Positions 1 to 5,722 of a stretch of 64,000 bases of DNA are shown piece after piece; the stretch's first letter is position 1; every line of letters begins with the position of its first letter. The stretch is taken from the NCBI RefSeq assembly GCF_024223415.1, contig NZ_CP100500.1; one strand, written 5' to 3'. The notes under the pieces are model-generated. The model was not told the origin of the DNA. It saw only the letters and a list, made by a program, of their open reading frames with translations, and ran no database searches. The position numbers and the translations under genes were made by a program. This stretch comes from Escherichia coli (GTDB lineage: Bacteria; Pseudomonadota; Gammaproteobacteria; Enterobacterales; Enterobacteriaceae).

Positions 1-1235
<1,235 letters not shown>

Positions 1236-1260: not shown

Positions 1261-1286
1261 GCCAGCCTTCGGGCTGGCGTTTTTTA
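1261..1286. terminator. Rho-independent terminator hairpin between convergent eno and TPM gene (gccagcc-ttcg-ggctggc followed by T-run; A-run on the other side)
   Basis: Perfect 7-bp stem GCCAGCC/GGCTGGC with 4-nt loop, then GTTTTTT; flanked by AAAAAT upstream so it can act on both strands. Confidence 0.8.
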
Positions 1287-1294
1287 TGGTTGAG

Positions 1295-2200
1295 TTACCA
1301 GCGACCGGACGCGCCGCCACCTCCAGAAGAACCGCCACCGCCGCTAAACCCGCCGCCTGAGCCTCCGCCACTTGAGCCGCCACCGGAAGAGGATGAAGAA
1401 GAACCTTTTCTTGAAGCTCTTTCTTTACTGAGTTTTTTGTATTTGGCGCGTAGCTTTTTATTGACGATAAGCCAAAAAATAACCAGTGGTACGATCGCAA
1501 AAGGCGTTAACATACCGCAGGCAACGATTAAATTGGTCCATGGTCCTGGCTCGGCAACATAGAGGAATACCATCCCGTAAATGGCGCCAGTGAGAGTGAT
1601 CCAGGGTAAATTCGACGGATCGGTAAAAACAATAAAATATGAAAGTACCGCCAGCAATATAATTACAGCAAGCGATAATGGAATAGGGGGATTGATACTG
1701 TAATAATCCCCCCTGTCTTCCGGTAATTCACCATTCAACAGAAGCGCGCCGATATTTTCGCTTGCCAGTGTTAATCCACCCATCAGGTCATCACTTTTGA
1801 AGGCAGGGATCAATATATCCCTGATAATCTTCGCCGCTTGCAGGTCGGTAACCACCCCTTCCAGCCCGTAGCCAACCTCAATACGAACAGCATGATCCTC
1901 CCAGGCAACCAGAAGTAAAATACCATCGTTTCTCTGCTTATCTCCCAGTTTCCAGCTATCAAAAACCCTTGTAGCATATTGTTCAATGGAATCGTCTCCG
2001 GTAGACGGCACTACTAATACAGCGACCTGCGCCCGTGTTTTATGTGTAATATCCTGCAGTTGCTGTGTCAGTGATTGTTGTTCAGAAGTGCTTAACGTAC
2101 CAGTAATATCGGTCACCTGTTGGCGCAGTTCCGGCACAGCAATTTGCTGGGCAAGCCCAGGAAGACACCACAAAGTGAATAGAATAAAGATTAAGCGCAT
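1295..2200 (-). CDS. ygcG: TPM-domain (TLP18.3/Psb32/MOLO-1 family) membrane protein, paralog 1; signal peptide, TPM domain, hydrophobic segments, Gly/Ser-rich C-terminal tail ending SGRW
   Basis: ORF 1295-2212; likely ATG at 2200 (MRLIFILF... signal-like N-terminus); TPM-like core (VAVLVVPSTGDDSIEQYATRVFDSWKLG...GILLLVAWEDHAVRIEVGYGLEG); symbol assigned by position next to eno and is uncertain because three paralogs are present. Confidence 0.8.
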   Translation of the reverse strand: MRLIFILFTLWCLPGLAQQIAVPELRQQVTDITGTLSTSEQQSLTQQLQDITHKTRAQVAVLVVPSTGDDSIEQYATRVFDSWKLGDKQRNDGILLLVAWEDHAVRIEVGYGLEGVVTDLQAAKIIRDILIPAFKSDDLMGGLTLASENIGALLLNGELPEDRGDYYSINPPIPLSLAVIILLAVLSYFIVFTDPSNLPWITLTGAIYGMVFLYVAEPGPWTNLIVACGMLTPFAIVPLVIFWLIVNKKLRAKYKKLSKERASRKGSSSSSSGGGSSGGGSGGGFSGGGGSSGGGGASGRW

Positions 2201-2205
2201 TACGA

Positions 2206-3354
2206 TCACCAACGGCCGGATGAACCGCCGCCTCCTGAAGAACCGCCACCACCGCGGAAAGAATTTCTCGACGAAGAGCGAGAGTGAGCATTACGATTCC
2301 CCGTTTTCCTGTTGCTTTTTTCTCCTGATCCCAGCTTAAGATTGCCAGTAAATTTGGCCACAATGATCAGCAGAACGATGCCAGCAATGGTTATTGGACC
2401 GATAAAATGATCAATTAACCCAATAATTGTTGAGATGAATGCAATATCTTTATTACTGGCGAACACTAGGCACCATCCCACAATAATTATCAGCATCACG
2501 ACAAACAATGAATTTCGTCCTGATTCACGAACCTGCGGAGTCTTCTTTTGTTTTTTCACTTTAGCGTTTTTATTTTTTGGGGTCAGCATCATAGGAAATA
2601 CGCGGCACATATTAAAAACTACCGCGAGACGCTGCTTGCAGGTTGTTGCTAACAATAAACTAAAACAAACGACCGATACCCGCCGAATGATGACATCGTC
2701 CTGAAAGGAGAAAAACCAGACCATAGGGGTAATCATCGATATCATCCATATGCCACGCCGTGGGCGGCTGGCAAATCGCCAGAGGACAACGATGGCAACG
2801 ATCATCAGCAGTGTCCAGGCAAGACATGGCAGCGAACGTTGCGGATTAGCAAACAGATGATTGGCTAAAGCATCCAAAGGGCTAATGTTCGCTTTGATAT
2901 GGGTAAACTGTGCGATGCTTTCAATTCCGCCCGTTAATCCAGCAAAGAGATTGTTTTTTTCGAATTCTGGCTGCATATGGTAACGAACAATTTGCGCAGC
3001 TTGTTCCGGCGGCAACATCTGTTCCAGTCCATGTCCAATCTTCATTGACGCCAGCCCTTCCGGCCATACGACGAGAATTAAGATACCTTCGCCATATCGC
3101 TTCTCTCCAACGGGTTTCCAGTGATATACCCCGTATCTCTGCGAGGCTGCAAGTTTAATGTTTTTGCCCCCTGTGGTCGGCGTAACCAACACGGCCACCT
3201 GGAAGTGGTTTTGCTGCTCGAGAGTCTGTAATTGTTGAGTTAAAGCAGTTTGTTCTTCTGTCGTTAATGTCCCGGTTAAGTCAGTTACTGAAGGCCATTG
3301 TTCAGCGAATACCTGAAAACCGCATAGCATCAGAAGTAAGAGAAAAATACGCAT
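2206..3354 (-). CDS. TPM-domain membrane protein, paralog 2 (382 aa), with extra Lys-rich linker and additional hydrophobic segments; C-terminal GGGGSSGGGGSSGRW
   Basis: ORF with ATG at 3354; N-terminal signal-like MRIFLLLLMLCGFQVFA; TPM-like core (VAVLVTPTTGG...GILILVVWPEGLASMKIGHGLE); stop 5 nt upstream of paralog 1 start. Confidence 0.8.
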   Translation of the reverse strand: MRIFLLLLMLCGFQVFAEQWPSVTDLTGTLTTEEQTALTQQLQTLEQQNHFQVAVLVTPTTGGKNIKLAASQRYGVYHWKPVGEKRYGEGILILVVWPEGLASMKIGHGLEQMLPPEQAAQIVRYHMQPEFEKNNLFAGLTGGIESIAQFTHIKANISPLDALANHLFANPQRSLPCLAWTLLMIVAIVVLWRFASRPRRGIWMISMITPMVWFFSFQDDVIIRRVSVVCFSLLLATTCKQRLAVVFNMCRVFPMMLTPKNKNAKVKKQKKTPQVRESGRNSLFVVMLIIIVGWCLVFASNKDIAFISTIIGLIDHFIGPITIAGIVLLIIVAKFTGNLKLGSGEKSNRKTGNRNAHSRSSSRNSFRGGGGSSGGGGSSGRW

Positions 3355-3368
3355 ATCAATTCCTTTTG

Positions 3369-4262
3369 TTACCAGCGCCCGGAAGCGCCACCGCCACCAG
3401 ATGAACCGCCACCACCGCTGAAATTGTCATTGTTGAATGAAGAGGATGACGATGATGAATAGTGGGAGGAAGAATTGCTTCTTGTATGGCGTGATGGCTG
3501 GTTGACATCACGCATCAAATCCCGAACTTTTTTGCCGAAGGGGGTAAAAGCGATGGCGACAGCCAGGAACGGTGTGGCGAAGCAGAGTAATGTTGCGAGT
3601 ACTCCCCAGCTTCCGCTGAAGCCTGCTATAGGTAAAACAAAGGCCAGTACAATAGCTGCGAAGCAAATTACTCCCAGCGTTTTGATATATCCTCTGGCAG
3701 AAATAAACGTCAGTACTATCGCCCAGACTAACAATGCCCACCAACCGCTAAAGGGCAAAGGGTGATCGGTCGGTGTTATCGTTGCTAAATTATTCCCCGT
3801 AAGACGACTTTCAATATCGCTGATCCCCTTTTGTAAACCGCCAGCTAGGTCGCCTTTTTTAAATGCAGGAATAATACTGTTGCGAATAATTTTCCTGGAC
3901 TGTGCATCCGTAATAATACCTTCCAGCCCGTAACCGATTTCAATACGCACGGTATGATCCTGCCAGGCGACTAACAGTAGAACGCCATCATCACGGTCTT
4001 TATCACCCGGTTTCCAGCTATCGAATACCCGCGTTGCGTACTGCTCGATGGTTTCATCGCCTGTTGTTTCAACCACTAACACGACCAGTTGTGCGTGGCT
4101 TTTTTGCGTCAGGGCTTTAATCTGGTTGGTCAGGGTGTTTACTTCGCTGTTTGTTAATGTGCCCGTTAAGTCATTCACATACTTGGGTGATTCAGGTACT
4201 GGAATTTGTGTGGCAAACACAGATGAACAGAAGAAAGCCATAAGGAAGATAAAATTTCGCAT
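3369..4262 (-). CDS. TPM-domain membrane protein, paralog 3; C-terminal GGGGSSGGGGASGRW
   Basis: ORF 3369-4292; preferred ATG at 4262 (MRNFIFLMAFFCSSVFA signal-like, GGGGAAG RBS upstream); TPM core nearly identical to paralog 1 (YATRVFDSWKPGDKDRDDGVLLLVAWQDHTVRIEIGYGLEG). Confidence 0.8.
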   Translation of the reverse strand: MRNFIFLMAFFCSSVFATQIPVPESPKYVNDLTGTLTNSEVNTLTNQIKALTQKSHAQLVVLVVETTGDETIEQYATRVFDSWKPGDKDRDDGVLLLVAWQDHTVRIEIGYGLEGIITDAQSRKIIRNSIIPAFKKGDLAGGLQKGISDIESRLTGNNLATITPTDHPLPFSGWWALLVWAIVLTFISARGYIKTLGVICFAAIVLAFVLPIAGFSGSWGVLATLLCFATPFLAVAIAFTPFGKKVRDLMRDVNQPSRHTRSNSSSHYSSSSSSSFNNDNFSGGGGSSGGGGASGRW

Positions 4263-4275
4263 AGAACTTCCCCGC

Positions 4276-4878
4276 TTAATGAGCATTAGCATTCTGGCTA
4301 AAATCTATTGTTGGGGCTTTACTTACTGCGGCGACATCATCCGGCAAATAATTTTTCTTTGGTGTGTAATCCATGACCTTTGCGGTTAACACAGCGGGGA
4401 ATTTGCGGATAGTGACATTATATTGTTCAATGGCTTTAATATATCTTCCTCGCGCAACGGCAATCCGATTTTCACTTCCTTCAAGCTGTACCATTAAATT
4501 TTGATAGAGTTCCTGAGATTTTAACTCAGGGTAACGCTCACTAATTATCGTTAACTGACCGAGAGTGCGAGTCACCTGCGCTTGAGCCTGTTGCCAGGCT
4601 TGTAATTTTTGTTCATCTCCCGGAGTTTGCTGAAGATCGCTACTGGCGCGATTAGCCTGGCTACGAGCCAATGTTACGGCTTCCAGTACATCTCGTTCAT
4701 GGCTGGAATAACCTTTAATGCTGGCGACAAGATTAGGAATAAGATCGGCGCGACGTTGATATTGATTCAATACCTCAGACCAGGAGGCGTTAACCTGCTC
4801 ATCATAGGTTTGAATATCGTTATATCCACAGCCTGATAAATTGAAAATAAATATAATTACGATGAATATTCTGAGCAT
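4276..4878 (-). CDS. lemA: LemA-family lipoprotein (lipobox LSGC near N-terminus)
   Basis: 200-aa ORF with LemA-like motifs (NASWSEVLNQYQRRADLIPNLV, ERYPELK); first gene of the lemA-TPM-TPM-TPM co-directional cluster. Confidence 0.8.
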   Translation of the reverse strand: MLRIFIVIIFIFNLSGCGYNDIQTYDEQVNASWSEVLNQYQRRADLIPNLVASIKGYSSHERDVLEAVTLARSQANRASSDLQQTPGDEQKLQAWQQAQAQVTRTLGQLTIISERYPELKSQELYQNLMVQLEGSENRIAVARGRYIKAIEQYNVTIRKFPAVLTAKVMDYTPKKNYLPDDVAAVSKAPTIDFSQNANAH

Positions 4879-5050: not shown

Positions 5051-5722
5051 ATGCAGTACCCGATTAACGAGATGTTCCAGACCCTGCAAGGTGAGGGTTA
5101 CTTTACCGGCGTCCCCGCCATTTTTATTCGTTTACAGGGATGCCCGGTTGGCTGTGCCTGGTGCGACACCAAACACACCTGGGAAAAGCTTGAGGATCGG
5201 GAAGTCTCCCTTTTCAGCATTCTGGCGAAGACCAAAGAGAGTGATAAGTGGGGGGCGGCGAGCAGTGAAGATTTGCTGGCTGTCATTGGTCGCCAGGGAT
5301 ACACCGCGCGGCATGTGGTGATTACGGGTGGTGAGCCTTGCATTCATGATTTGCTACCACTGACAGATCTGCTCGAAAAGAACGGTTTTAGCTGCCAGAT
5401 CGAAACCAGTGGTACTCATGAGGTACGCTGCACACCGAATACCTGGGTTACCGTATCACCAAAGCTGAACATGCGCGGCGGCTATGAAGTGTTGTCACAG
5501 GCACTGGAGCGAGCCAACGAAATCAAGCATCCAGTGGGACGCGTACGTGATATTGAAGCACTGGATGAACTTTTGGCGACGCTGACCGATGATAAACCGC
5601 GAGTCATTGCACTGCAGCCGATTAGCCAAAAGGATGATGCCACACGTTTGTGCATTGAAACCTGCATTGCGCGTAATTGGCGTTTGTCGATGCAAACCCA
5701 TAAATATTTAAATATTGCCTGA
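5051..5722 (+). CDS. queE: 7-carboxy-7-deazaguanine synthase (radical SAM, queuosine biosynthesis)
   Basis: 223-aa ORF; CxxxCxxC-type cluster motif (GCPVGCAWCDT) and overall match to QueE/YgcF. Confidence 0.93.
   Translation: MQYPINEMFQTLQGEGYFTGVPAIFIRLQGCPVGCAWCDTKHTWEKLEDREVSLFSILAKTKESDKWGAASSEDLLAVIGRQGYTARHVVITGGEPCIHDLLPLTDLLEKNGFSCQIETSGTHEVRCTPNTWVTVSPKLNMRGGYEVLSQALERANEIKHPVGRVRDIEALDELLATLTDDKPRVIALQPISQKDDATRLCIETCIARNWRLSMQTHKYLNIA

Follow-up and report, generated by a model that had tools for sequence, protein, structure and literature searches.

A LemA–TPM operon between eno and queE

The window analyzed here, a stretch of 64,000 nucleotides from Escherichia coli (contig NZ_CP100500.1), carries an eno–queE island that codes for a LemA-family protein and three YgcG-type TPM proteins (TPM1, TPM2, and TPM3), all on the minus strand. 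Its conserved flanks lie on the plus strand, with eno (enolase; 36..1235) on the left and queE (5051..5722) on the right. The gene of the LemA-family protein (4276..4878; 200 aa) is the first of the operon and is followed by those of TPM3 (3369..4262), TPM2 (2206..3354), and TPM1 (1295..2200). The lemA-TPM3-TPM2-TPM1 operon ends at an intrinsic terminator-like hairpin on the minus strand (1261..1278; GCCAGCC-CGAA-GGCTGGC and then a T run) that is located 17 nt downstream of the TPM1 stop codon and is common to this operon and eno, back-to-back. Counted from the annotated ATG at 2200, TPM1 comprises 300 aa, its ORF extending up to a TTG at 2212. TPM2 (382 aa) has diverged the most of the three, and TPM3 measures 297 aa from the ATG used in the annotation of related genomes, its ORF being open to 4292.

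RefSeq names the three TPM genes as YgcG family or TPM domain-containing and the product of 4276-4878 as a LemA family protein. The TPM domain (Pfam PF04536) is matched by TPM1 with E = 4e-38 and by TPM2 with E = 3.7e-21; TPM3 scored 2.5e-55 against a TPM HMM built in this analysis, and the LemA ORF scored 1.8e-75 against a locally built LemA HMM. The N-terminus of the LemA-family protein, MLRIFIVIIFIFNLSGC, contains a lipobox (L-S-G-C), and the protein is therefore predicted to be a periplasmic lipoprotein. None of the four island proteins matched any defense-system family in PADLOC, and a search of NCBIfam gave only weak, sub-threshold matches at the family level (Psb32 for the TPM proteins and MamQ for LemA).

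From N- to C-terminus, TPM1 consists of a signal peptide, a TPM domain (1745..2116) that is predicted to be periplasmic, a membrane region (1475..1684) of three hydrophobic helices and then a basic juxtamembrane stretch with 11 K+R and 1 D+E, a Gly/Ser spacer (GSSSSSSGGGSSGGGSGGG; 1349..1405), and a terminal motif of 17 codons (FSGGGGSSGGGGASGRW; 1298..1348) directly followed by the stop codon (1295-1297). TPM3 is built in the same order of signal peptide, TPM domain, three TM segments, and tail, with its terminal motif FSGGGGSSGGGGASGRW at 3372..3422, and TPM2 carries about five hydrophobic segments with basic loops between them ahead of a tail that ends in FRGGGGSSGGGGSSGRW (2209..2259). A hydropathy scan predicted this arrangement as an N-terminal hydrophobic segment plus three segments after the domain (about five in TPM2).

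A C-terminal peptide shared by YgcG-type TPM proteins

A sequence-only reading of this locus had described a near-identical Gly/Ser tail on three proteins whose bodies have diverged, especially that of TPM2. These descriptions are accurate: the C-termini (those of TPM1 and TPM3 being the same) were exact as written when checked on all three ORFs, and the bodies of TPM1 and TPM2 share 34% identity, those of TPM1 and TPM3 45%. Over the last 17 residues, TPM1 matches TPM3 at 17/17 and TPM2 at 15/17 positions. The direct repeats of roughly 45 bp that had been noted in the coding DNA were also recovered, as a repeat family at 1294-1348, 2205-2259, and 3368-3422 whose 55-nt copies at the three gene ends are 78-85% identical to one another.

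We surveyed the wider family with the TPM domain alone as the query so that the tail could not bias the search. The family is very large, given that the TPM1 domain matches 12,537 clusters at 50% identity (E <= 1e-10), and among 150 representatives of 50%-identity clusters that were analyzed, 108 end in [F]-S-GGGG-x-[SF]-GGGG-A-S-G-x-W. Within these 108 W-ended representatives, G is found at -5, -6, -7, -11, and -12 in 107-108, S at -3 in 107, and A at -4 in 96. Residues beyond the W occur in just two motif-bearing representatives, so that a free C-terminus seems to matter. The reverse test, a scan of bacterial genomes with a degenerate DNA pattern for GGGG-A-[ST]-G-x-W-stop, retrieved 121 ORFs from many phyla that end in the motif; 111 of them have a TPM domain, nine others are cut by the end of the locus, and the last one is a 41-aa ORF.

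On these alignments, the shared ending is the C-terminal peptide that defines the YgcG-type membrane TPM proteins as a family (we name these proteins TPM-A); it has the consensus [F/W/Y]-[S/G]-G-G-G-G-x-[S/F]-G-G-G-G-A-S-G-x-W-COOH. All three E. coli paralogs carry it in agreement with the consensus of the 108 representatives, and YgcG of E. coli K-12 ends in the identical 17-mer. Because K-12 YgcG shares this 17-mer and the same positions are near-invariant in 108 distant representatives, the likeness of the tails goes beyond chance or low-complexity drift. The spacer ahead of the motif varies widely in length and composition over the family, from GGGF repeats to poly-Ser.

We found no description of the terminal motif in the literature on UPF0603/DUF477/TPM_phosphatase, YgcG, or the TPM domain together with LemA, and nothing relevant for the string "GGGASG". 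NCBIfam holds no model of the tail, and the tail matched no sequence in the PDB; full-length TPM1 matched isolated TPM domains there as well as, artefactually, engineered fusion chains that we take to contain synthetic G4S-type linkers. A protein search with a 47-aa tail query returned E. coli fragments only, probably due to the low complexity of the query.

Selection on the peptide versus duplication of the DNA

Direct repeats of about 55 nt with 78-85% identity at three neighboring gene ends could also mean that the 3' DNA was recently duplicated or gene-converted and that the tails resemble each other for this reason alone, the peptide itself being free of selection. The codons say otherwise. 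Between TPM1 and TPM3, 8/17 tail codons differ and all eight differences are synonymous (0 non-synonymous), and throughout the copies 8-11/54 nt differ, nearly all synonymously. At conserved residues, a codon identity of 0.50 was obtained for the tail, resembling the 0.29-0.39 of the gene bodies, so that the tails appear to be about as old as the genes. Moreover, the same peptide has been kept across phyla at very different GC contents. We therefore reject recent duplication or gene conversion as the explanation and consider an unselected tail extremely improbable. A role of the repeat at the level of DNA or translation was likewise discarded, given that third codon positions vary freely and the peptide is fixed.

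These comparisons support purifying selection on the peptide, and not homogenization of the DNA, as the probable reason that the tail is kept in all three E. coli paralogs. The sequence-only reading, which suggested a role in sorting, tethering, or interaction, had argued for a selected C-terminal motif as opposed to drift or recent duplication, a view that near-identical DNA and homologs devoid of the motif would have weakened; it is borne out by the synonymous tail differences and by the TPM homologs of many phyla that carry the motif.

Operon context of the tailed TPM proteins

Among 63 loci in which a tailed TPM gene has adequate flanks, LemA is encoded nearby in 58 and a tail-less TPM in 49. 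This second TPM type, which we call TPM-B, is short, lacks both the tail and the signal peptide, and ends in FP...NELP[DN]; an N-terminal hydrophobic segment is present in 4/46 tail-less TPMs compared to 98/111 tailed ones. Canonical LemA / TPM-A / TPM-B operons (e.g., that of Bizionia with BA41 and BA42) are widespread in Pseudomonadota and Bacteroidota and resemble the E. coli island in that LemA comes first and a tailed membrane TPM follows on the same strand. However, they encode one tailed TPM and one TPM-B where the island has three tailed copies instead. Most operons have one tailed protein, two tailed copies were seen in just 1/120 sampled bacterial loci, and no ORF of the TPM-B type exists in the 64-kb window, whose sole TPM matches are the three tailed genes. 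The E. coli island is thus atypical. K-12 has neither LemA nor TPM-B, yet its tail is kept perfectly; since the tail is retained both there and in an island devoid of TPM-B, this partner cannot be the only reason for keeping it.

Predicted topology and structure of the tail

The signal peptide, an odd number of TM helices, and K/R-rich juxtamembrane regions (by the positive-inside rule) together place the TPM-A tail in the cytoplasm, as far as sequence features can tell. Crude hydropathy counts of TM segments are mixed over the family (1, 2, or 3), and the even number seen in a sizeable minority suggests three-TM proteins that were undercounted at a Gly-rich middle helix. Short basic inter-TM loops of TPM2 aside, the tail and the basic juxtamembrane stretch are predicted to be the only substantial part of the LemA–TPM system that faces the cytoplasm.

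In an AlphaFold2 model of full-length TPM1 (301 residues), helices at 175-257 are followed by a segment at 258-287 that includes the spacer and is predicted to be disordered (pLDDT < 50), and the last ~11 residues then regain a pLDDT of 85-96 with a strand at 297-300. When TPM1 was modeled without its TPM domain, the TM helices still reached a pLDDT of 80-90, whereas the tail fell to 49-54 and formed no strand, with an alignment depth of 36 sequences for this truncated control versus 67 for the full-length protein. High confidence in the tail only when the TPM domain is present suggests that the TPM fold may be able to receive the tail peptide. The dock suggested by the model would be on the protein's own TPM domain, which is predicted to lie across the membrane, so that a literal contact in cis is impossible and the result may be artefactual. 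Also speaking against the dock, a preprint (10.1101/2025.05.08.652833) reports low confidence for the C-terminus of a Psb32-like protein from a cyanobacterium.

The motif on viral proteins

In viral contigs, we found the motif on about 28 non-TPM proteins that are unrelated by BLAST, and positions that the search pattern did not demand are also conserved in these copies. The carriers include tail-tube-like proteins, a 950-aa protein, and many small proteins with a Zn-ribbon or a hydrophobic helix, and one viral contig has three consecutive tailed ORFs. Some of the phage carriers, such as the tail-tube-like and Zn-ribbon proteins, show no obvious membrane segment. The motif therefore appears to behave as a portable module.

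Possible functions of the tail

We put at roughly one half the probability of our main reading, namely that the ending is a family-defining peptide under purifying selection that most likely acts as a tethered docking peptide. Each TPM-A would begin with a signal peptide and a periplasmic TPM domain and cross the membrane by one or three TM helices, or by about five in the case of TPM2. The basic juxtamembrane stretch would come next, then ~20-40 residues of disordered Gly/Ser(/Phe) spacer, and lastly the motif. With the spacer serving as the leash, the last ~10 residues, including the free carboxylate of the terminal Trp, would join a folded partner as an additional short strand. A candidate receiver in canonical operons is TPM-B, which would be cytoplasmic for want of a signal peptide. 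In a more far-reaching version that we hold to be possible but rather unlikely, the 17-residue ending would be a portable "plug" that fits the TPM fold or some other host factor of wide conservation. In canonical operons, it would link LemA/TPM-A on the periplasmic side with TPM-B in the cytoplasm to form a three-part transmembrane relay, phages would have copied it onto virion and small proteins for the same site, and E. coli with its three plugs and no TPM-B would be a rewired variant.

The tail might instead be a generic physical element, i.e., a flexible, protease-resistant and "slippery" bristle in the cytoplasm whose Trp parks at the membrane interface or fixes the topology. A spacer that is predicted to be disordered, varies widely in length and composition, and sits in a tail adjoining the membrane would suit such a bristle, and glycine-rich tracts are indeed poor substrates of AAA+ unfoldases. 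We nevertheless regard it as unlikely because flexibility alone does not predict last 17 residues that are near-invariant by position (A at -4, S at -3, G at -2, and the final W), because phage proteins with no obvious membrane segment bear the same motif, and because AlphaFold2 is confident about the tail only along with a folded domain. A processing tag, be it a C-terminal degron, a ligand of PDZ domains or tail-specific proteases, or a sorting or secretion signal, is a less probable option in our view, even though a free carboxylate on an aromatic residue at the very end is reminiscent of PDZ and Prc/Tsp ligands and of the C-terminal signals of OMPs, and even though the motif can be carried over to phage proteins of no relation. 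DegS, DegP, Prc, and BAM work in the periplasm, but the predicted location of the tail is the cytoplasm; the conserved operon encodes no processing enzyme, and PADLOC and NCBIfam yielded nothing beyond the weak Psb32 and MamQ matches. Signals for sortase, exosortase, and rhombosortase, which do not fit here, have the order motif, TM segment, and basic cluster, the reverse of the order found here (TM segment, basic cluster, Gly/Ser spacer, and a motif ending in W).

Finally, the tails of neighboring TPM proteins could zip together through polyglycine-II or aromatic-glycine contacts and thereby cluster the paralogs or build an oligomer. The two G4 blocks punctuated by aromatics at about -16, -9, and 0 would lend themselves to such self-association, as would the expression of three tailed paralogs from one operon, the three consecutive tailed ORFs on a viral contig, and the presence of the motif on phage tail-tube-like proteins, which assemble as rings. 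We doubt it strongly, though, given that most operons encode a single tailed protein, that a comparison of the tail with PDB sequences found no structural precedent, and that the AlphaFold2 monomer lacking the TPM domain leaves the tail unstructured, with the proviso that a monomer model cannot test oligomers.

Relation to known systems and significance

The closest known relatives are the members of the YgcG/UPF0603 family (PF04536), such as E. coli K-12 YgcG and BA41 of Bizionia argentinensis (PDB 5anp), with which the window proteins share the signal peptide, the TPM domain, the TM segment(s), and the Gly-rich tail. They differ from the situation in the window, where three tailed paralogs are encoded in one operon and a tail-less TPM partner is absent. 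Solved structures of this family in the PDB cover the TPM domain only and include the tail in no case. Psb32/TLP18.3, which acts in photosystem II repair and assembly, similarly has a lumenal (periplasm-equivalent) TPM domain on a C-terminal TM helix but lacks the glycine-rich extension, and TPM1 and TPM3 reach 31 and 35.7 bits against the NCBIfam Psb32 model (NF047379), far below its cut-off of 160. We know of no role that has been assigned to TPM domains outside photosynthesis, nor of any characterization of E. coli YgcG.

The tails of SSB proteins offer a functional analogy: a Gly-rich disordered linker leads to a short conserved tip whose terminal aromatic residue and free carboxylate dock into pockets of partner proteins. 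The SSB tip is acidic (DDDIPF), though, and belongs to a soluble DNA-binding protein with no sequence relationship to the TPM tail. For the membrane TPM protein YdjH of Bacillus subtilis (pspA-ydjGHI operon), two-hybrid assays revealed binding to cytoplasmic PspA and YdjI, and YdjH is needed for the recruitment of both to the membrane (PMC8581546). No experiment other than these assays hints, by analogy, that proteins of this kind may dock partners through their cytoplasmic part. In its operon, YdjH is accompanied by PspA and an SPFH protein in place of the LemA of the window, and its end as deduced from published primers (PMC8581546) would read ...SRGSF compared to ...ASGRW in the window.

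Conservation of the tail equals that of the TPM domain core. As the predicted cytoplasm-facing part, it would together with the juxtamembrane stretch be a natural handle for finding what the LemA–TPM system connects to. That phage proteins with no relation to TPMs bear the motif suggests that it functions in its own right, and phages may exploit the receiver, if there is one. In genome annotation, the motif can serve to tell tailed membrane TPMs cleanly from tail-less cytoplasmic ones.

Direct repeats and paralog turnover

That the direct repeats might drive the gain or loss of paralogs by recombination, as had been proposed from the sequence, found no backing in the quality of the repeats or in population counts. 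The longest exact match between tails in the window is 11-16 nt, shorter than the ~23-27 bp that Shen and Huang reportedly found in 1986 to be needed for efficient RecA recombination in E. coli, which counts against tail-to-tail exchange. TPM1 and TPM2 occur together in essentially the same ~1,100 of 5,426 genomes. The structural variants seen were whole-haplotype replacement, allelic mosaics, and one IS1 deletion, the single partial-deletion genome that we examined being IS1-mediated. The identity breakpoints of K-12-type and mosaic alleles fall at ~1366-1370, just inside the conserved DNA coding for tail and spacer, a location that speaks in favor of recombination.

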